NCBI GenBank assembly: GCA_023898485.1
Contig: CP060225.1
Span: forward strand, 513,704 to 545,703
Source: Candidatus Peribacteria bacterium
GTDB lineage: Bacteria; Patescibacteriota; Gracilibacteria; Absconditabacterales; Absconditicoccaceae
DNA: 32,000 bases
Reading direction: 5' to 3'
How positions within the stretch are numbered: the stretch's first letter is position 1; the number at the start of each line of letters is the position of its first letter. Positions 8,096-32,000 of this stretch are shown piece by piece. The position numbers were made by a program, and so were the translations under genes. The notes under the pieces are model-generated. The model saw nothing but the letters and a program-made list of their open reading frames with translations. It ran no database searches and was not told where the DNA came from.

Positions 8096-8113
8096 TTTTA
8101 TGCAAGATTATTT
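8096..8113. repeat. 18-bp direct repeat TTTTATGCAAGATTATTT, copy 1 (overlaps the 3' end of the toxin gene)
   Basis: Exact match to 8629-8646. Together the two copies bracket the RelE/RHH cassette. Confidence 0.8.
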
Positions 8114-8350
8114 GCCTCGTTTTTTGTAGATATCACCTCTAGATCATCATCAGACTATCTCGATCGATCACCCTTTCTCCATGAAAATAATCCTCTTATT
8201 ACCAATTCTTACTCTTTGGTATGGTGTTCCTTTGAGGGGTTTGATATCGAGTCATGTATGATCTCATGATATGAGCTGCATCAATACTTTTTTGATACGT
8301 TGTCTTTCTCATGTGGAAAGTGTATGGATCCATTTGATATAATCTTTCAT
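8108..8350 (-). CDS. RelE/ParE-superfamily type II toxin, 80 aa
   Basis: ATG 8348-8350 directly abuts the antitoxin stop. Translation is MKDYIKWIHTLSTGERQRIKKVLMQLISGDHTGLDIKPLKGTPYQRVRIGNKRIIFMEKGGSIEIVGGGSRGDIYKKRGK. The LKGxxYxRxRIGxxRIIF...RGDIY pattern is typical of RelE/ParE toxins. It has seven in-frame TGA codons, including a TGA-TGA-TGA run, so it is invisible in standard code. Confidence 0.7.
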
Positions 8351-8578
8351 CTAATCATCTAGAGCAGAGATAAACTCCTCCGCCGATATAGATTCAGAAA
8401 AAAATTCGTCACTCCATGATCCATTAATCTGCAACTGTATACGATCAGGATCAGCAATAGATCGTAACTGCATAGTTACCAGACTAGAGACACTGATACC
8501 AAGCTCTTCCGCCAGTGCCTGCAATCTCTGTTTTAGTTTGGTATCGATACGCATCGAAAAAGTGGTTTGTGTAGCCAT
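8351..8578 (-). CDS. Ribbon-helix-helix (CopG/RelB-like) antitoxin, 75 aa
   Basis: MATQTTFSMRIDTKLKQRLQALAEELGISVSSLVTMQLRS has the beta-strand/helix/helix RHH pattern. It sits immediately upstream of, and is co-oriented with, the toxin. Its stop is TAG. Confidence 0.65.
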   Translation of the reverse strand: MATQTTFSMRIDTKLKQRLQALAEELGISVSSLVTMQLRSIADPDRIQLQINGSWSDEFFSESISAEEFISALDD

Positions 8579-10276: not shown

Positions 10277-13200
10277 TTATCCTATAATCTCTGCTTTGCC
10301 AGCATCGATGAGGTCTTTGACTTTTTTGTATTTGACTTCGTACTCTACTTTGCCATCAGGATAGCGGACGGTGATTTTGTCATTGGGGCGGAGTTTAGAT
10401 CACTTGGTTTGTAGTTCGTGGTCAGTGGTCAGTGGTTCGCTGCCCGTCTCAATCACTTCTACTCCGTCTTCGTCAGATTGGATTTGCTTCGTTGTTTTGG
10501 GTGTAGTTGTTGGTGCTGAAGGAGACGAAGCTGCTGCCGCTTTGATAGAGTCGATAATACCTGACTGTCTGGCTTGGATTCTTGCCTGACGAGCATTGAT
10601 TTGGTCATTCACATTATCCCAGTCGATCTGTGCTGTGCGAGTCACGATATCGCGGTCGATATTGGCCTGGAGCTGAAGGAAGAGTTCGTATGCCTCCCTT
10701 TTGTACTGGACGAGTGGATCGATCTGTGCATAGGACATGAGACCGACCTTGTCGCGAACATGCTGCATTACATCGATATGATCTATCCAATAGTGGTCGA
10801 TAATGTTCAAATTATTGGTCGTGATCATCTTGTTGACAATGACAGCAGGAATATCGTGCTGGACATCGAGTCTCTGCTCCAAATGATCGGTCAAAACATG
10901 CATGAGTTCGTTGGATGAACCAGGGACGCTGTCGAGGGTCAGGTTAAATTCTTTCTGAAGGGTAACAAGAAGATCTTCATCAGACACATCCAACTGTTCT
11001 TGCTCGGTCACAAAGCCAGCAATGACGTCTGGTATGAGTGTACGGATATCCTGGATGACAGGAGAGTCTGCCAAATTGATAGTTGCCTTATCATCGGTTT
11101 GTTTTTCTGCTTCAGAAAGTGCAACAAGGAGTTTATTTCTTCTATCATACATTCTTTGGCGCTGTTTGTCGACGACGGTATCATAGTCGAAGAGGTGCTT
11201 ACGAGAAGAGAAATGTCGTGCCTCCATCTGCTTCTGTGCGCGGATGATAGAGCCACCAAATTGTTTATTCGTCAGTTCCATCTGCTCGAGCTGATCTCTA
11301 GACATGAGTGTGGCTGCGAGGGATTGGATTTTTTCTCCGCCGACTTTGCGCATGATCTCATCATCGAGTGCGACGAAAAACATCGATACACCCGCATCTC
11401 CTTGACGACCGGCACGACCACGGAGCTGGTTATCGATACGACGAGAGTCATGTTTTTCGGTAGCGAGGATCATCAGACCATAATGAATATTTTGCTCGAC
11501 AAGATCACCTGTCGCTCATGCTGGTTTGATAGTGAGTTCAAGATAGGTGTCTGATGGTTTGGATTTCTTCGTATTGAAGGTGAAGGTCCACTCTGCTCCC
11601 TCATGGGTCAGTGTGTGATTGCGCTCTGCATCACGTACCTCATCGAGTGATAACCCGAACTGTGCAACCAACGCGTCAAAGGTCAGTTCCGCTTCTTCGC
11701 GAGAGAAGATATCGAGTGACACAGGGTGAGCATTTTGGAGCTGAGTGCTGATTCGCTTAGCATAATTAGTAGCGATCTGTATATTAAGATCGTCGGGGAG
11801 TTTGATATCCGTACCACGACCGGCCATATTGGTCGCGACGACGACCGATCCCAACTTACCTGCACCTGCGACGATATTCGCTTCTTGTTCGTGAAATTTG
11901 GCATTGAGGACAGAGTGTTTGATCGCTACTTGAGTCAGTAGTGATGAGACGAACTCCGAGGTGTGAATCGATGAGGTACCAACCAAAATCGGCTGACCCA
12001 TACGATGTGCAAACTGGATAGTGTCCATGACGGCTTTCCATTTGGCGTTTTGGGAGAAGTATACTTTGTCTTCGTAGTCGACACGGATGACTGGCTTGTT
12101 GGTCCTGATCGCAAGGACACCCAACTCATAGATAGACTCAAATTCTTCACCTTCGGTCGTTGCGGTACCCGTCATACCAGCAAGTTTGTCGTATTGTTTG
12201 AAAAAGTTTTGGTAGGTAATGGTTGCGATGGTTTTGGATTCACGCTGGATAGCTACTCACTCTTTGGCTTCGATCGCTTGGTGGAGTCACTGGTTGAATC
12301 TACGACCTGGCATTGCACGTCCGGTATTGGTATCGATGATGACTACTTCGCCATTAGATACGATATATTCTTTGTCTGCGCGATAGACTGCTTGGGCTTT
12401 GATAGCGTTTTCGATGTGGTGTATCTCATCGAAGCCGAGATCTCTGTAGAGATTTTCTACTCACAAAATACTCTCAAGTTTGGCGATACCCTCGGAGGTA
12501 AGGGTAGCATTTTTGGTCTTTTCGTCGATGTAGTAGTCTCCATGTGGTTCGGATTCTGATTCATCTTTTTTCTCATCATTGAGTAGATCATGGAGAAATC
12601 ATTTTGAAACTTTTTTGCGTCCAGGAGCTGCAGTGAGGTTGCGGATGATCTTGGCGTAGTAAGTGTATTTGTCCGTAGACTCCTCTGCTGGCTGCGAGAT
12701 AATCAGCGGTGTACGTGCTTCGTCGATCAGGATAGAGTCTATTTCGTCCACAATGGCAAAATATAATGGTCTCCAGAGCAGCACTCTCTGTTCCATCGTC
12801 TTGGCGATATTGTCGCGGAGATAGTCAAATCCAAGCTCTGAGTTTTCGACGTAGGTGATGTCACATTCATACTCTTGGCGGCGAGCTTTGCCTTGAGGAG
12901 TGCTCTTGGTCACGGAGCCAATCGTCATCCCGAGAAATTGATAGAGATGTCCGATCCATGCAGCATCACGAGATGCGAGATAATCGTTCACCGTGACGAG
13001 ATGGACACCCTTACCGGTGAGAGCATTCAGATAGAGTGGTAATGCTGCTACTAGTGTTTTACCTTCACCGGTTTTCATCTCAGCGATTGCATCACGATGG
13101 AGTACGATACCTCCCAGTAACTGGACATCATACGGGATCATGTTCCAGGTCTGGAGTGTGCCTTTGACATCGTATTCGTTGCCGACCATGAGTGCACATG

Positions 13201-13423
13201 CACGTTTGACGAGTGCAAATGCTTCGGGCAAGATGTCGTCAAGATGTTCGCCTGACGCGACTCTGGATTTGAGTTCCGCGGTTTTGGTCTGGACTGCTTC
13301 TTGATCATAGTCAGCGTAGTCATGCTCGTAGATCTCATTGATCTGGCGGATAATGGGGTCGATTTTTTTGAGTTCTCTTTCGTTGTAATTTCCTGATATT
13401 TTATCAGCTAATCGGTTGATCAT
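10277..13423 (-). CDS. secA: Preprotein translocase ATPase SecA (1,048 aa)
   Basis: Track ORFs 12599-13423, 11516-12175 and 10400-11473 are in one frame. The 12176-12598 gap translates as ...[17 protein letters not shown]...[60 protein letters not shown] without TAA/TAG. GLHQ and KEGV use TGA 12287-12289 and 12257-12259. The true stop is TAA 10277-10279. The C-terminal tail lacks the Zn-binding CxCxSGxKxKxCH motif. Confidence 0.95.
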
Positions 13424-23598: not shown

Positions 23599-23832
23599 GT
23601 CTCTTCTGTACATATGGATAAAACAATATTTGATACTAGATATGTGGTGGGGGTTTTGCAAGAGGGAGTGATACGATACGACCATTTGTCATAAAATCTA
23701 TCTTACTTTCTTCTCATCTACAAATGATTTCCTATTTAAATCCTGTGTTATAATTGCAACAATTATGGTTACATAATGAGCACAGGAATAGTACATTGGC
23801 ATCAAGATCTCAATAGCCTAACGGAATCTGTT

Positions 23833-24246
23833 CTATATGCAATGTGATATAATAGAAGGCATCTCAACAACCCACACACAGTAATTGATCTGGCTATTTT
23901 TTGTTAGCTCATGGAAGATGATATCATCTAGTCATCTCACTCCATAGACATACTCTTTGGAGAAGGTCTGTCCACCATTACTGTCGTAGGTTTGATGCTC
24001 TTGAGCAATATTCTGTCCATCATAGACATAGGTGATGAGTCTGGATTCATTACTTCATTGGTAGACTCTCTTACTCGTTCTACATCATAGTGGATCGTAG
24101 CTATATTCGATCTTGTAGGGGTCTTGGTTTCCTTCGTGGTTATTTTTGAGATTCGCTTCGATGAGTCTATTCTGGTAGTCGTAGGTAAATGTTCGCTTGT
24201 CGTTTTCGATGAGGCTGTTGCTCGTTTCACACAATAGAGAGTCATA
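23833..24246 (-). pseudogene. Truncated rhs core remnant (no start codon; homologous to part of the main rhs)
   Basis: The frame opens right after the TAA of the upstream gene. It reads ...NDKRTFTYDYQNRLIEANLKNNHEGNQDPYKIEYSYDPLGCRTSKRVYQGSNESRLITYVYDGQNIAQEHQTYDSNGGQTFSKEYVYGVRGLDDIIFHELTK, then diverges and stops at TAG 23833-23835. Nucleotides 23905-24213 align closely with 27329-27658 of the main gene. Confidence 0.7.
23905..24213. repeat. Rhs-core repeat B, downstream copy (pairs with 27329-27658)
   Basis: Long stretches are identical by eye, for example CTCTTACTCGTTCTAC.TCATAGTGGATC.TAGCTATATTCGATCTTGTAGGGGTCTTG. There is one indel: the main copy carries extra sequence encoding DNPAEDGAGHP. 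Confidence 0.75.
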
Positions 24247-24666: not shown

Positions 24667-25582
24667 TTACTGTAAATGATCGCGTAGCTTCTCTTCCGTT
24701 ACAATAAGTCCATATTTTTGATACATGGCATATCACAATTCTACTGTATTTCGATCACTAACTTCATCATTAAATTTATCAGAATATCTGTTACTACACT
24801 CATCCATAGTTAACACCGCACATCTTAATGTCATTTTTGCTGTGAACACATTAGCACTTCAATTAATTAACTCATTCATTGGCATACCTCCAGCTGCCCC
24901 GACATACCCGTAAAGCAGATTACCAAACCAATCATACGAATACTCATTATCTGCTATTAATACAGAAAATGCTTGTAGTGTTGCTGGAGAATATTCATAT
25001 CTCTTATAGTCTCGATCTCATCGTGGGCGAACTTTATTAAAGAAGTATAGATATTTATCAATAGATAGTTTATCTAATTTTATTTGAAGAGTAGAAATTT
25101 TGAATCTTTATTAATTCATTCTCAAAAAAAGATCAATCTCATCGATTTAATTCATTTTGTAAATTTACAATACTTCTTTTTATTGCAGATTCTTGAAGGG
25201 CATAATTCTGCATTAGAGCTCAATTATTTAACAGCTTATTGAGTGCATCTATTGTCATATCTGGAAGTACTTCTTTACTACTCAACCCCCATGGATCCAC
25301 ATAATTCACACTATTGTTCCTCACATAGCTATACGGATTCGGCCCATCGATATACAGCAGTGGATCACTGGAGATGAATCTTCCGAGTCTCGGAGAGTAA
25401 TATCTCGCTCTATAATAGTACAGATCAAGTTCTGCTTCGTATTCTCTAGCGATGTAGAGTCTGTAGTTTTCTAGTCATGGTTTGGATTCTTGCATGGATG
25501 TGTTTCCATTCTGCTGATTACCACTTGGATTACTAGTATTTGTGTTACTAGCGCATTGTTGAAATTTTGATATATAGTACAT
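24667..25582 (-). pseudogene. Orphan rhs C-terminal module: core tail, DPWGL, linker, then a type-44-like toxin domain in the +1 frame
   Basis: Frame 1 runs from ATG 25580-25582 to TAA 25070-25072. It reads MYYISKFQQCASNTNTSNPSGNQQNGNTSMQESKPGLENYRLYIAREYEAELDLYYYRARYYSPRLGRFISSDPLLYIDGPNPYSYVRNNSVNYVDPWGLSSKEV.... The +1 frame is open from 25107 to TAA 24667-24669. It reads ...VRPRGDRDYKRYEY...YDWFGNLLYGYVGAAGGMPMNELINGSANV...NDEVSDRNTVELGYAMYQKYG and has no start of its own. Confidence 0.65.
25286..25533. repeat. Rhs-core repeat A, orphan copy (pairs with 26921-27168)
   Basis: About 250 bp encoding NPSGNQQNGNTSMQESKPGLENYRLY.AREYEAELDLYYYRARYYSPRLGRFISSDPLLYIDGPNPYSYVRNNSVNY. The nucleotide sequences differ at only scattered positions by eye. 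Confidence 0.85.
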
Positions 25583-25589
25583 ACACTAT

Positions 25590-26261
25590 CTATGCACTAA
25601 AACAATCTTTCATATCAATTATACCTATATAAGATATATTATTAACGATATAGAATATAAAAACCGTATCCTGTATGTAGTATATTGTAGAGACATGATC
25701 TCTAATGAATCATGCATATTCCATATCCTCAGGAGAAGCTAAGGTGCTATCGTCATTAATATTGTTATGTTTATAAAAATCTATCTTTCATTGGTTGATA
25801 TCGATTATATCCTGTACAAACTGATAGTTATTGTCATAGTCATAAGATGCAATTACATCTGGTTTATAATCATCACTGTCTCCCAACCAACATATATCTT
25901 GCCATTGCAAATCATTATTAGTTTCTAATTGGTCCACAATATCTAGATTAAAATCAAATCATGATCAGTAGTATACTGCACCAAAAAACCCGTTATAATA
26001 ATATGTCTCATATGCATCCTCAAATCATGGGAAAAATGCGATATATCAATCAGCTCCAGGATTGTAAAAGATCCCTAAGCTATCCTTCACAAAATGATCC
26101 ATCATAGCAAAATCATTACTATTAAGTGCAGATAGTAGTCAAATAATATCATCATGCTGACTATCTATGTCTATATCTCTTCAACTATTGTCTAGAATAC
26201 TGCATCAAGATAATAACATACAACACAACACCCCAAAGTATCTTAGAAATATTACTTTCAT
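25590..26261 (-). CDS. Lipoprotein, 223 aa; candidate immunity protein for the amidase-tipped Rhs toxin
   Basis: ATG 26259-26261 lies 24 nt downstream of the rhs stop, and the ORF ends at TAG 25590-25592. MKVIFLRYFGVLCCMLLSGCSILDNSG has a lipobox LSGC whose Gly is TGA 26205-26207. The mature part is acidic and aromatic-rich (FFPGFEDAYETYYYNGFFGAVYYGSGFDFNLD) and matches no family I recognise. The ORF is invisible in the standard code. Confidence 0.6.
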
Positions 26262-26284: not shown

Positions 26285-26920
26285 CTACTTTTGATTCTCT
26301 CTTACGTATTGTATTACATCATCTGCAAACGATGTTGCTTCTCAAATATTTTTACAACTTACCCATGGGTGTGCGTATATATCATCAGCACTTAAACCAT
26401 ATGTATTTGCAACCGATAATGTTAATTCTTTTAAAGACTGTAGTTGATCACTAGTTAGTGGCTCACCAGTCATTCATACATTCTCTATTCAGATGGTGTT
26501 TTGGTTATTATTAGCATACTGATTTACTTCATCTGTTTGATGCCAGTCATCTACTCATCAGTTATAAACATATTCCCTCAAGGTATTTACACAGTATTCA
26601 TTTGCTCCATTGTGTCGAGCTATCTGTGTATCAGGATCAAGTGTCCCATATATTTGACCATCAGTATCTATAATATAGTGAGCACTTGCAGTACCTTTGG
26701 GTCGCGTATAATCTAATGTAGATTCTAAGGTTGTTGCATTGGTTTGGTGTAGAATAATAGCTTGTATTCATTCTCATTGACGATCTCGATGTCAATAATT
26801 ATATTTTTCAGCATATGACCAATCAATATCAATTCATCACAAATTATCAATTCGTTCATTAATACTATTTGTAAATGTGTTACTCTTAATGTTATCATAT
26901 AGTATAGCACTACTCTCTAA
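26285..26920 (-). other. Rhs C-terminal toxin tip: Amidase_2 (N-acetylmuramoyl-L-alanine amidase / PGRP)-like domain
   Basis: After DAWGL the protein reads ...GIQAIILHQTNATTLESTLDYTRPKGTASAHYIIDTDGQIYGTLDPDTQIARHNGANEY...NTIGIENVGMTGEPLTSDQLQSLKELTLSVANTYGLSADDIYAHPWVSCKNIGE. This follows the Amidase_2 order: IxIHxT (His ligand), AHYxIDxDGxIxQ, AxHxG, NxIGIE, TxxQxxxLxxL, then IxxH....C (His/Cys ligands). Confidence 0.6.
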
Positions 26921-29900
26921 CCCCCAAGCATCCATATAATTCACACTATTATTCCTCACGTAGCTATATGGATTCGGTCCATCTATATATAGTAGTGGAT
27001 CACTGGAGATGAATCTTCCCAGTCTCGGAGAGTAGTATCTCGCCCTATAATAGTAAAGATCAAGTTCTGCTTCATATTCTCTAGCGGTGTAGAGTCTGTA
27101 GTTTTCTAGTCATGGTTTGGATTCTTGCATGGATGTGTTTCCATTCTGCTGATTACCACTTGGATTACCATTCGTATTTCATGAGTTTTTACTTCATCAG
27201 AATATTATATTACCTCGGGTATCGTATCTGTAGGATTCGACTATCTTACCTTCTTGGTTAGAGAGAGCTATGATAGATCACTGATGATTTTGATAATAGT
27301 AGTACTGATTCACCTGATCATTTCTGGTGAGTTCATGGAAGACGATATCGTCTAGTCCTCTGGCTCAGTAGACATACTCTTTGGTGAAGGTTTGTCCATC
27401 ATTGCTCTCATAGGTTCGATGTTCTTGAGCAATGTTCTGTCCATCATAGACATAGGTGATGAGTCTACTTTCATTGCTTCATTGGTAGACTCTCTTACTC
27501 GTTCTACGTCATAGTGGATCATAGCTATATTCGATCTTGTAGGGGTCTTGATTTCATGGATGGCCTGCCCCGTCTTCAGCGGGGTTATCTTTCAGATTCG
27601 CTTTGATGAGTCTATTCTGATAGTCATAGGTAAATGTTCGCTTGTCGTTTTCGATAAGGTTGCCATTCTGATCGTATGCAAAACTAGTGGCTATTGCTCC
27701 TGTTGCACCTTCTGTCCCTATTGCTACTTCTTCATATTGGTTTCTGTTATTGATGTTGTAAGTGTTCTGATACTCATCTGTCACTGCACCGACACCATTA
27801 TAGTCTGGACTGATGGTGAGCCAGTCATCTTGGACTCCACTACTACTTCATCCACTTTGTCAATTTGATCCATTTCATCCTGTATCATCTCCCGTTCCTC
27901 GTCCATAGTGATTTCCATTCCCTCCATTACCTTGGTTTTGTTGGTTTCCATTGCCATTATTGTTTCCATTTGATCCACTTGGTCCATTTCAGCTATTTCA
28001 TCCACTTTGTCCATTATTCCCATTATCTGTATTGGGTACGACTGATTGCGTCGTATTTCACTGGGTATTGCTATTAGCTTTCTGATGGAGTCGATCGAGG
28101 ATAGTGATACCTGCGATGTCATTGTATTCGGTGACTCTGTTGCCTAGTCCGTCGTAGGTATAGGTCTGTACTCGATGGTTGAGGTCGGTAGATCATTGTT
28201 CGCCATTGGATCAATTGATGAGATCACCAATATTGTAGGCAGTGGTCGTGATCTGATAGATATCATCATAGTAGTACTGATCGTGACCATCAGTGAGGAT
28301 GTTATTCATCAGATCATAGGTGTAGGTGTAGCCTATCTCGGTGGTAGGTCAGCCAGTGAAGCTATCGTGACTGAGGGAGGTAGGTCTTAGGAGATCGTCA
28401 TAGATTCGTGAAGTGGTAGTATCATTGGCTCTGGTGAGAGAGGTGAGGGTGGCGCTGTCATAGAGGTAGTCGATGATACTCTCTCCTTCTCGCTGGATAT
28501 CTGTCATGCGTCCGAGGATGTCCCACTGGTTCGTAATCGTCTTGCCTGATGGGTAGATGGTGTCTTGGAGATCAGCGGTATCAGCGTAGTAGCTATGGGA
28601 GATGGTCTGAGTAGGGAGTCACTGCTCGGTGAGTCGTAAGTTAGACTGTGATTCAGAGGTGAGCCTATCCAGACTATCATACGAGAAAGTAAGATCATGT
28701 CCGAGGTCATCGGTGATCGATGTGACCCTCCCGAGTTCGTCATAGGTGTAGTGCTCCTGAGTGACTCATCCGACTCATGGACCCAGATCAATATCCTTCT
28801 GTGTGATGCGATGCATGTCATCATAAGTATATGCTACGGTCGACCCATTGGGATCGGTAGATGAGATGATATTGCTGTCTGCATCGTAGGTGTAGGTAGT
28901 GATTGCACCATCGGGGAGTGCTTGCTGTATGAGTCTATCATAGTCGTCGTAAGTCCATGTGGTGATGTTGCCATTATCATCGGTGAGAGAGATGAGATTA
29001 CTGTGGCGATCATAGGTTTTGGTAGTGACGATAGCTTGTGATCCATCATGTTGCGTTACTTGTGTGACATTGCCCCAGTAGTCATATTCGTACTCGGTAG
29101 TATTACCCTCTGCGTCCGTCATCTGGGTGATCTGACCCAGTCCATTGTAGACGTAGGAGAATGTCTGTCCCATGTGATTGGTCGTCTGGATGAGACGATG
29201 ATCGTCATCATAGGTATTGGCTATTCGGAGCATCTTACCTTCTGCTGTGGTGATGGTTTGTTTGGTGATGAGGTTGTCATCATCATATTCATAGGTCAGT
29301 ATTTTGCCGACTGCGTCGGTGATGGTCTCTGGTCTGGCAAATGCATCATAGGTCATCGTAGTCACCGCTCCTCTCTGATCGGTCATGGCGATGATCTTCC
29401 CATGTTGATCATAGGTATAGGACATGGAGAGAGTTTCGCTGGTGTTATCTACATTGACTTTGTCTACCTGTGTCAGCTGTCATCGTGCATCATAGGTGTA
29501 GTTTCGTTGCTGTAATAGTATGTAGTTAGTGGTTTGTGGTGTGTAGTTGCTTACTATCATCCTTGTTATCATGTTGCGATTATCATCGTACTCGAAGAAG
29601 GTGGTGATATCCTCAGCAGTGGTGATAGTGGCGATCATATCATCGAGTGTTCGAGTCATGGTGGTCTCATGTCCTTCTGGATCAGTGATGGAGATCAGTC
29701 TTCCTTTGGTGTCATAGTCATAGCTGTACTTGATCAACTGTCCATCTACTGTTGCAGATTTACTGGTGAGTCTCTGGAGAGAGTCATAGGTATAGTTTCG
29801 CGCGAGTCATTCAGGAAGGATGATGGATGAGAGGTTGTCATTGGGATCATACTCCATGATAGTGGTAGCTATAGTGTCTGCATCTTGGTCAGTAGAGATG

Positions 29901-32000
29901 GATGTGAGATTGTCGAGGATGTCGTAATCGAACGTAGTGTCGACATGAGCACCATCCACATCCTGGATCATACTGGTGAGGTTATGATTGTCATCATAGC
30001 TGTATGATAAGGTGATGGCTTCTGGAGTAGTGAGCCCGGTGAGTCTATCCCACTCATCATGAGTGAGTGTGGTGGTGTGACCCTCTCCATCAGTGATGGT
30101 ACGAGGATTACCAAAATCATCATACGAGATAGTCTGTGTGATCTGACTACCATCAGTACCAATCTGGGTAATAGTGAGAGGGAGATCGTATTCGTTATAG
30201 GTGTAAGTTATCTGCTGACCATAAGGGAGAGTGATGGTATCTGGTTTGTCAGAGTCAGTGTAGGAGATAGTGGTGGTACGAGCAGGGAGAGAGCTGTCTG
30301 CTGGCTGGATGGTGTACGAAGTGAGATTGTTGTGATCATCGTAGGTGTAGCTATGGTGAATATGATGGCTGTCTACTTTTTCTGTCAGGAGATTATTGCT
30401 ATCATAAGTGAAGGTTTCGGTGAGAGATTCATCACCATCGGAGATAGTGGAAGAGGTGATATTGCCTTGGTCGTCGTAAGTGTAAGACTGTGCAGAATCA
30501 TCAGGATAGGTAATCTGCGATACCTGATGTCATATACCATCATATTCATAATGATACATGATGCCTGACTGATCAGTCAGAGACAATAAACGGTAATATG
30601 CATCATACACATGAGTTGCTGTCTGACCGCGTCTATCAGTGATATCTACCTGTAGATTACCATCAGCAAGATCGGTATATGTATAAGAAAGTATCTGATC
30701 ACCATAGGCCTGTTGGATAACACGGTCATGAGCATCATATGTGTTGTCCACATAGATATTGTCTTTGTTATCATCAATAGTTGCTAGCTGATGCGAAAGA
30801 AGATGGTTGACTACACGCTCACCTGTCACGCTATCATAACGTACATCACTATTATAAGTGAGATTGATGGTCTGATTTTGATTTTCATGATTGACCACAA
30901 ATGATGCAATATCTCCCAATACGCCATCACTGTCCTGATCACCGTAATAGGTAATATCTACTGAGCGACCATTGGCATGAGCAATGTGTGTGAGTCTCTT
31001 CTCAGGATATGATGGGTTGAGCTCTTCGTATGAGAAAATGATATTGCGTCCATGAGGATCAGTGATAGTGGTGAGATATCCCTCATCATCGTAGCTAAGA
31101 GCATAATCAGCATTATGTATGGTATAGCGAACCATTCTCCATGGCACTATATCTTCGCCCTGAGATGCAAATACTTGATAGGCGTTGGCACCTACAATAT
31201 GTAAGATGTATTCATCTCCTGATTGGGAAATCTCCATATCAGACGCATTAGTCCATTTGTCTCCCTCTTGGACGAATTTATACACATGGAGGTATCCATC
31301 ATAATAGGTGATAGTAGACCCATCGATAGTGAGATATTGATTCCAATTATGATCTCGATTTCGTCACATGATACCGTTGTATGATGCTTGATTATCATAG
31401 GTGACTACCAATTGAAAATCTTCACCCTCCGTCGGCTCATCCATGAGTGTATTGGACCAGACCATTGCACCTCTTGCAAGATCGACAGGATCACCACTAT
31501 TCTGTGTCACCTCTGTTTGAGCTTGTATGCCTCCATAGTATTCTACTATACTATTGGTATAATCAACCTGCGGATTATAGATATAAGAAGTCAGATTGAT
31601 ATTATTACTCATCTGTTCATGCTGTATCACAGGTTCTTCTTCGGTGGGAAGATTGATGCTACCATCAGGATTAGTAGTAGGATCCCATGCAGCAGGACGA
31701 GGACAATAATTATTATCTACAATAATTTTTAACTTATAGTTTCTCACCTTCACCACACAACCAGGATCAATATATTGTGATGCTGTCATTTCATTATGCG
31801 TACATTGTCCATCCCATCGTGCTATTCCTCATGGACATTGAGAAACATCAGATGTGGGACATACAAATCATGCATAATCACCATCTGTCGGCTGATACCA
31901 GTCTGCCAAATCTTCTGCAGTAGCATAGGGATCATCAAGCACTGACGCATAGACAGGACATATTTCTAGATAGGTAGGTCACTCTTCATAATATGCTCAT
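26285..32000 (-). CDS. Rhs/YD-repeat polymorphic toxin, 5'-partial (>1,900 aa in window), with C-terminal Amidase_2/PGRP-like domain
   Basis: Track ORFs 31364-31789, 30530-31285, 29480-29737, 28775-29425 and 27554-27784 are all in the frame of stop TAG 26285-26287. I read the gaps 31286-31363, 29738-30529, 29426-29479, 27785-28774 and 26921-27553 codon by codon and they contain TGA but no TAA/TAG. The Rhs shell entry motif GDPVDLARGAMVWSNTLMD is near 31440-31495. Dozens of YD repeats follow (YTYDxxGR/N...). The core ends ...LYYYRARYYSPRLGRFISSDPLLYIDGPNPYSYVRNNSVNYMDAWGL. The frame is still open at 32000. Confidence 0.9.
26921..27168. repeat. Rhs-core repeat A, main-gene copy (pairs with 25286-25533)
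   Basis: See the 25286-25533 feature. The copies diverge exactly at the DPWGL/DAWGL boundary on one side and at NPSGN on the other. Confidence 0.85.
27329..27658. repeat. Rhs-core repeat B, main-gene copy (pairs with 23905-24213)
   Basis: See the 23905-24213 feature. Confidence 0.75.
27836..28069 (-). repeat. Gly/Asn/Ser/Gln low-complexity insert inside the rhs coding frame
   Basis: The rhs frame reads NTQGNTTQSVVPNTDNGNNGQSGGNSGNGPSGSNGNNNGNGNQQNQGNGGNGNHYGRGTGDDTGGNGSNGQSGGSSSGVQDDW. Six TGA codons sit among GGA/GGT/GGC/GGG glycine codons. Confidence 0.8.

Follow-up and report, generated by a model that had tools for sequence, protein, structure and literature searches.

How does an Rhs locus come to hold a seemingly undamaged toxin domain that is out of frame with its own delivery module? 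The question is raised by a 32,000-nucleotide (nt) stretch of the genome of a Candidatus Peribacteria bacterium (contig CP060225.1, forward-strand positions 513,704 to 545,703), hereafter the window. In it, a short cassette downstream of a full-length Rhs/YD-repeat gene and a lipoprotein gene repeats the end of the Rhs core, continues into a linker and stops; a polymorphic toxin domain of the Ntox44 family follows in the +1 frame. We refer to the frame of the core end and linker as frame A and to that of the toxin as frame B, and the coordinates of all features are collected in Table 1. The cassette is probably a genuine orphan rhs C-terminal (rhs-CT)/immunity module that has a break of the toxin frame within its linker and that, most likely, was disabled recently.

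Genetic code and anatomy of the orphan cassette

All frames and translations are given under genetic code 25, in which TGA specifies glycine and not tryptophan. Reading of the open reading frames (ORFs) over the whole window with table 11 shreds the genes into short fragments, whereas TGA as a sense codon gives long genes. SecA (10277-13423) has two TGA codons at invariant glycines of a conserved motif, and TGA also specifies the glycine in the lipobox LLS-G-C of the lipoprotein (25590-26261). The Pfam scores of both toxin tips are higher with TGA as glycine than as tryptophan (45.9 versus 31.9 bits for Ntox44 and 58.5 versus 49.7 bits for Amidase_2), and TGA codons in the toxin frame align with invariant glycines of annotated Ntox44 proteins. 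A search of the window for tRNA genes, which could have confirmed the assignment, found none. Judged by SecA, the lipobox, the Pfam scores and the Ntox44 alignment, the window therefore uses code 25 and its host is a code-25 organism. This code points to the Gracilibacteria/Absconditabacteria type. The remaining genes of the window are intact under code 25. The first-pass annotation of the locus, made from the letters of the window, had implicitly read TGA as glycine, and all of its statements about the sequence hold under that reading.

Frame A opens with an ATG, 7 nt past the TAG of the lipoprotein gene, at the position given in that annotation (25582). After a unique leader it carries a second copy of the end of the Rhs core, which had been described as a repeat of the last roughly 80 codons through NSVNYVDPWGL. 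The alignment to the main gene, 92.7% identical over 260 nt, covers 87 codons through YYYRARYY...NSVNYVDPWGL, with about 86 core codons kept. Nucleotide homology to the main gene then stops abruptly at 25277, two codons past DPWGL, and a linker of 68 codons leads to the TAA that had been named as its end (25070-25072). Against the profile TIGR03696 (RHS repeat-associated core domain), frame A scores 71.5 bits with a cutoff of 32.5 and aligns to the profile end; the core end of the main gene scores 65.8 bits, also to the profile end, and YD repeat matches are present there as well. The tips that follow the boundary differ, being Amidase_2 in the main gene and Ntox44 in the orphan. Furthermore, the orphan ORF lacks the N-terminal trafficking region and most of the YD-repeat shell. 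The call of an orphan rhs-CT cassette is thus borne out by the TIGR03696 match, the intact DPWGL, the loss of homology after it, the position downstream of the main gene and the small ORF behind the toxin.

Regarding the self-cleavage boundary itself, the canonical DPWGL is kept in the orphan (25283-25297), and the main, presumably active gene has DAWGL (~26909-26923), its core terminating at ...NSVNYMDAWGL.

Over the 87 aligned codons, the core ends of the orphan and the main gene differ by 16 synonymous and four non-synonymous changes, which corresponds to a synonymous divergence (dS) of 0.37 and a ratio of non-synonymous to synonymous divergence (dN/dS) of 0.053. Therefore, the core-end copy is not a recent, drifting duplicate, and it appears to have diverged within a working rhs allele. 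Divergence as part of a functional allele fits the displacement/acquisition model of orphan modules (PMC4436062).

Frame B is closed just upstream by two TAA codons (25113-25108) and is open from 25107 to the TAA at 24667-24669. Its first ATG, GTG or TTG is the codon of residue 75 (ATG 24885), within the toxin domain, which confirms that the frame has no start codon of its own. The resemblance to type-44 toxins noted in the first-pass annotation is upheld by the hidden Markov model search, in which frame B passes the Pfam gathering threshold of Ntox44 (PF15607) and matches the profile over nearly its entire length; in the conceptually repaired protein of 304 residues the score is 43.7 bits. 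The motifs that define the family are DxK, GNxxxG and DxxxD (Zhang et al. 2012, PMC3482391), and all three are present, as DYK, GNLLYG and DEVSD, and aligned with those of annotated members. A tblastn search against plasmids recovers Streptomyces and Kitasatospora proteins annotated as 'polymorphic toxin type 44 domain-containing protein', with 27-33% identity at 87-88% query cover, and relative to these actinobacterial members the window copy has an insertion of ~20 residues (VFTAKMTLRCAVLTMDECSNRYSDKF). A further plasmid match, from Hymenobacter (H7), was rejected as spurious since it hits a membrane protein, and a PDB sequence search with the tip found no relative. By its profile match and motifs, the toxin of frame B is a true member of Ntox44, if a divergent one. 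In the searchable literature we found no experimental work on Ntox44, which is uncharacterized there and for which an all-alpha fold is expected; searches for the run and assembly accessions gave no papers either. The tip is +1 relative to the core end and linker and is thus out of frame with the module that would deliver it. Lacking its own start codon, the toxin domain would in this arrangement be a disarmed warhead.

The frame break in the linker

The frame change is confined by the stop codons on its two sides, those of frame B at 25113-25108 and that of frame A at 25072-25070, to a zone of 35 nt (25073-25107). This agrees with the first-pass annotation, which had also pointed to short A-runs there; the longest homopolymers in the zone are two A4 runs (25098-25101 and 25078-25081). 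The change is +1, which means one surplus base or a lack of two. It lies ~8-20 codons before the conserved toxin domain, in the variable linker. A codon-usage score trained on the other genes of the window is best for frame A down to ~25110 and best for frame B from ~25000. Since coding potential switches from A to B, the two frames constitute one coding region with a frame change.

Three causes had been left open for this change: decay, a sequencing error and programmed frameshifting. Deletion of a single base anywhere in the zone, with one position excepted, restores an ORF of 304 residues with a perfect toxin domain, as would be expected if the real genome held an intact orphan and the break were a sequencing or assembly error or a collapsed variant. 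An undamaged toxin domain would fit such an intact gene as well. However, two other assemblies agree with the window base for base across the zone: a contig in ENA (L003; ERZ27309361, with a MEGAHIT-style name; window ~26201-25054) and a Logan contig (L004; SRR12358676; window 25482-24054), each recorded in two samples. A further Logan contig of 5.9 kb (L001) is 100% identical to the window, which, with the intact state of its other genes, speaks for good sequence quality. Exact look-ups found tryptophan-translated versions of three ORFs in other public assemblies, namely frame A, the truncated frame B and the 128-residue ORF behind the toxin. Given that three assemblies are identical across the zone, that no homopolymer in it exceeds four bases and that the other genes of the window are intact, an assembly error is unlikely as the cause of the frameshift, and we give only a slim chance to an intact orphan in the real genome.

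The public short-read assemblies end inside the Rhs repeats (L001 at 24040 and L004 covering 25482-24054). The ENA assembly has a gap between L003, which ends at 25054, 19 nt beyond the zone, and L005, which starts at 24909. As for the one longer run near the zone, T7 at 25124-25130, phase variation was considered and rejected because the T6 and T8 versions both stop early.

To place the break in the context of the family, we compared the cassette with other Ntox44 loci. Exact DNA and peptide-pattern scans of genome and metagenome contigs, together with protein and profile searches, found no close relatives of the cassette. A word-indexed protein search with the repaired linker and toxin gave no match, and an exhaustive HMMER search with a TGA-free stretch of 52 residues returned, apart from two false positives of repetitive sequence, only a code-11 fragment of this very locus. 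A profile-guided metagenome scan recovered ten distant relatives; identity to the relatives found is 28-44%. In each of the five with Rhs cores that were read (L013, L014, L016, L017 and L018), the core end (DPxG), the linker and Ntox44 stand in a single frame, with Ntox44 scores of 59.6-65.9 bits where tested. A profile built from three intact relatives aligns to both sides of the break, to the core end in frame A and from 'LYFFNKVRPRGDRDYK...' onward in frame B. Homology of the linker across the shift into frame A is undetectable with this profile, and the linker is lineage-specific.

These comparisons bear on the possibility of a scar, left by an out-of-frame deletion or recombination. Such an event would have fused the front of one cassette, with its core end and the N-terminal portion of a different tip, to the back of an Ntox44 cassette, leaving a dead orphan that no single-base reversion could restore. 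The spacer from DPWGL to Ntox44 is ~80 residues in the window and 46-56 in the closest intact relatives, the linker has no detectable homology to those of the relatives, and the profile alignment starts only at residue 20 of frame B. The locus has also clearly been rearranged in the past, as its synteny break and the other, truncated core fragment show. On the other hand, linkers are lineage-specific in the Ntox44 family anyway; that of L018 is ~167 residues long and holds a PG_binding_1 domain (27.5 bits, cutoff 23) immediately ahead of Ntox44. Moreover, the coding potential of frame A is positive right up to the zone, and the site has no repeat or other junction signature. We therefore assign the scar a small, though not trivial, probability.

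Programmed +1 ribosomal frameshifting, or another form of recoding, could, at low efficiency, yield a fusion of linker and toxin and so keep expression of a dangerous toxin low or conditional. The pristine state of the toxin domain despite the break would suit such a device, and in the context A AAA T (25078-25081) a tRNA-Lys could re-pair in the +1 frame. The termination apparatus of code-25 organisms is altered, which also counts in its favour. However, this candidate slip site has neither a stop codon nor a known hungry codon in the A site, and the AGA before the frame-A stop cannot re-pair in the +1 frame. The zone has A4 runs only, and slippage at the only longer run, T7, would meet the two TAA codons in frame B. 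No stimulatory RNA structure is predicted (z = +0.75; 154 of 200 shuffles fold as well), and an Rfam search around the shift site found no match. None of the intact distant relatives uses a frameshift, with no close relatives among those compared. In addition, the product would still lack the Rhs shell needed for delivery. Recoding is thus very improbable here.

Independent translation of the Ntox44 frame from a non-canonical start (ATT or ATA, 25060-25098) would need no frame A at all. Ahead of the domain, frame B has 21 open codons, with ATT and ATA codons in that stretch. Against this stand the lack of any ATG, GTG or TTG before residue 75 and the architecture of the family, in which the Rhs-linked relatives bear Ntox44 as a C-terminal tip and actinobacterial type-44 proteins are larger proteins that have it close to their C-terminus. 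A free toxin would also have no export route, and we consider a stand-alone start extremely improbable. One weak match lay under no annotated gene.

Among the three causes originally listed, an error is unlikely and programming is unsupported, leaving decay or a recombination scar as most likely. Our preferred explanation is a genuine orphan module with a broken toxin frame. The order of the module is directly seen, with a core end and its DPxGL self-cleavage boundary, a linker, Ntox44 and a small membrane-anchored candidate immunity gene, and so are the family assignments, the position of the break and its presence in three assemblies. With ~86 codons, the core end could provide a 257-nt homology arm through which the cassette recombines with the main rhs gene. 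A genuine DNA change in the zone, one extra base or its equivalent, most likely broke the toxin frame; in its present state the cassette encodes a toxin-less stub of 170 residues, and the candidate immunity gene is intact. The break would be an inactivating mutation rather than a regulatory device. Because the toxin domain retains every family motif, the break also appears to be recent. A swap onto the main gene through the 257-nt arm would be possible, and a working toxin would need a one-base reversion.

Several points weigh against this explanation. First, the toxin domain looks fully undamaged, as would also be expected if some recoding still expressed it. Second, the assemblies were compared at the assembly level, and the read sets behind the three may overlap. 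Third, the ancestral in-frame state would follow from relatives with only 28-44% identity, from which the exact mutation cannot be reconstructed. Lastly, the 128-residue ORF is a candidate cognate immunity gene by its position only. Because the toxin domain is undamaged, we also retain, at a very low probability, the idea that the break is functional. It would then signal recoding or act as a one-base 'safety catch', silencing the spare toxin and being bypassed or reverted at low frequency. If so, the cassette would be a conditionally armed warhead and not a pseudogene, in a code-25 host with an altered termination apparatus.

Returning to the broken orphan module, the first-pass annotation had interpreted the cassette as a stored alternative warhead. 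This description suits the type of module. It does not suit the present copy, since recombination onto the main gene would yield a toxin-less Rhs. The frameshifted Ntox44 tip is probably an ordinary, dead spare part, with its value mainly as a correctly annotated example.

Neighbouring genes and annotation of the locus

Table 1. Features of the Rhs locus in the window and of Ntox44 loci on other contigs
Feature	Position	Strand	Details
Main Rhs/YD-repeat gene	26285..31999	-	1904-residue ORF (TGA-sense code); runs off window end, 5' end outside
Main Rhs gene stop	26287-26285	-	TAG
Main Rhs C-terminal tip, Amidase_2 (PF01510)	about 26288-26908	-	58.5 bits
Predicted lipoprotein	25590..26261	-	223 residues; signal peptide and lipobox LLS-G-C; from translation; stop TAG 25592-25590
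Orphan cassette, frame A	25070..25582	-	170 codons and stop; ATG 25582-25580 to TAA 25072-25070
Unique leader of frame A	25534-25582	-	
Rhs core-end copy in frame A	25277-25533	-	92.7% identity over 260 nt to 26909-27168, E = 1e-108
DPWGL boundary in frame A	25283-25297	-	within NSVNYVDPWGL
Zone holding the frame change	25073..25107	-	bounded by frame-B stops 25113-25108 and frame-A stop 25072-25070
Orphan cassette, frame B	24667..25107	-	146 codons and stop; open from 25107 to TAA 24669-24667
Ntox44 domain (PF15607)	24715-25044	-	45.9 bits, cutoff 24, E = 7.7e-12, profile 2-104/104
DYK (DxK motif)	25003-25011	-	aligned with annotated Ntox44 members
GNLLYG (GNxxxG motif)	24907-24924	-	aligned with annotated Ntox44 members
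DEVSD (DxxxD motif)	24754-24768	-	aligned with annotated Ntox44 members
ORF of 128 residues	24247..24633	-	intact; N-terminal transmembrane helix; 33 nt after toxin stop; from translation
Second, older Rhs remnant	23833..24246	-	internal core fragment without toxin tip; just upstream of secF
Post-Ntox44 gene, L013	831-1418		
Post-Ntox44 gene, L016	774-1364		
Post-Ntox44 gene, L014	1222-1791		
Post-Ntox44 gene, L017	5481-6095		
Post-Ntox44 gene, L011	962-1405		
Post-Ntox44 gene, L002	4417-4704		
Post-Ntox44 gene, L008	2893-3204		
Ntox44 locus with PG_binding_1, L018	772-2310		

Within the repeat region of the main Rhs gene, a long low-complexity insert rich in glycine, asparagine, serine and glutamine (…NGNNGQSGGNSGNGPSGSNGNNNGNGNQQNQGNGGNGN…) occupies ~27790-28120 on the minus strand. 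The lipoprotein that follows this gene has no Pfam or NCBIfam match, and its position makes it a candidate immunity protein for the amidase tip. The N-acetylmuramoyl-L-alanine amidase tip and the lipoprotein plausibly form a pair of cell-wall toxin and extracytoplasmic immunity protein.

The 128-residue ORF behind the orphan toxin has no family match in the Pfam and NCBIfam searches, and its similarity to the ORFs downstream of related toxins is not above that of shuffles. A resemblance seen by eye to those ORFs ('NWY[KR]VE' and 'Y.YS..D[IL]') failed the same shuffle test and was rejected. In all Ntox44 loci examined, the product of the gene directly after the toxin is exported, bears a lipobox or is a membrane protein. 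It has a lipobox or transmembrane segment in L013, L014 and L016 and a transmembrane helix in the window, whereas L017, L011 and the Streptomyces plasmids have multi-pass membrane proteins at this place. Zhang et al. 2012 (PMC3482391) list no immunity family for Ntox44, which is labelled 'predicted RNase' in the literature. The membrane or exported neighbours, together with PG_binding_1 in L018, hint at an envelope or peptidoglycan target over this label. Thus, the locus is one of several suggesting that the uncharacterized Ntox44 family may act on the cell envelope.

A second, older Rhs remnant gives weak RHS_core/RHS_repeat matches. It is 83.7% identical to the main gene over 343 nt (23896-24217 against 27320-27662), with a dN/dS of 0.125, and homology is then lost. 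As this remnant is truncated and tip-less, the Rhs locus has undergone at least two rounds of rearrangement. In a related species (L019; Logan SRR28385528; positions 1-1423), the sequence is 82.7% identical over secF-rluA, and a HAD-family hydrolase occupies the place of the Rhs array. Synteny with L019 ends exactly upstream of secF (window 23662-23700), and the Rhs array therefore lies at a synteny break, in a variable region. Promoter and terminator scans gave results no different from shuffles. Elsewhere in the window, two abutting ORFs on the minus strand, 8108-8350 (80 residues) and 8351-8578 (75 residues), are possibly a type II toxin-antitoxin pair; by eye, the upstream one starts like a ribbon-helix-helix antitoxin.

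Public gene calls for the window sequence are either code-11 fragments on the NCBI contig (P0001, 32 residues; P0009, 77 residues) or tryptophan-translated (Logan/ENA). Thus, protein databases give a false picture of these proteins, which escape word-based searches. More broadly, code-11 annotation shreds Rhs genes in lineages that read TGA as glycine and makes such loci invisible in most protein databases.

Comparison with known Rhs systems

The orphan-module model for rhs loci is established (PMC4436062; PMC3482391), and recombination with the main gene has been shown for enterobacterial orphan rhs-CT/rhsI modules (Koskiniemi et al. 2014, cited in PMC4436062). Like the orphan rhs-CT/rhsI modules of E. 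coli, Salmonella Typhimurium LT2 and Dickeya (PMC4436062), the window cassette comes after a full-length rhs gene and the (here candidate) immunity gene of that gene. Similarly, it consists of a short 3' end of the core that could serve as a homology arm, a DPxGL boundary, a different tip and a small candidate immunity gene, and a further degenerate fragment stands behind it. The differences concern both the host and the cassette. The window host uses code 25, has an apparent genome of ~1 Mb and probably does not deliver Rhs by a type VI secretion system (T6SS), the Rhs N-terminus being outside the window. The window cassette has its own ATG, and its toxin frame is broken by a frameshift and is not merely without a start codon or promoter.

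WapA-type Rhs/YD toxins of Gram-positive bacteria, which are exported by Sec (e.g. PMC12704120), also combine a shell with polymorphic tips. The window host, for its part, is not expected to have a T6SS. The likeness covers the shell and the tips, the N-terminal region of the window Rhs protein lying beyond the window.

Compared with other members of Ntox44 (PF15607; PMC3482391), the window copy shares the full-length profile match, the three motifs and the position C-terminal to an Rhs core, as in L013, L014, L016, L017 and L018. It differs in the insertion of ~20 residues relative to the actinobacterial members, in its identity of only 28-44% to the relatives found and in the frame break that separates it from its delivery module. 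Degenerate cassettes of the orphan type are no surprise at rhs loci, and the present case adds the code of the host and the frame break. In summary, a bacterium with a small genome, in which TGA specifies glycine, also has the complete layout of Rhs toxin swapping: the main gene and its candidate immunity gene, the orphan tip plus homology arm, and older debris.

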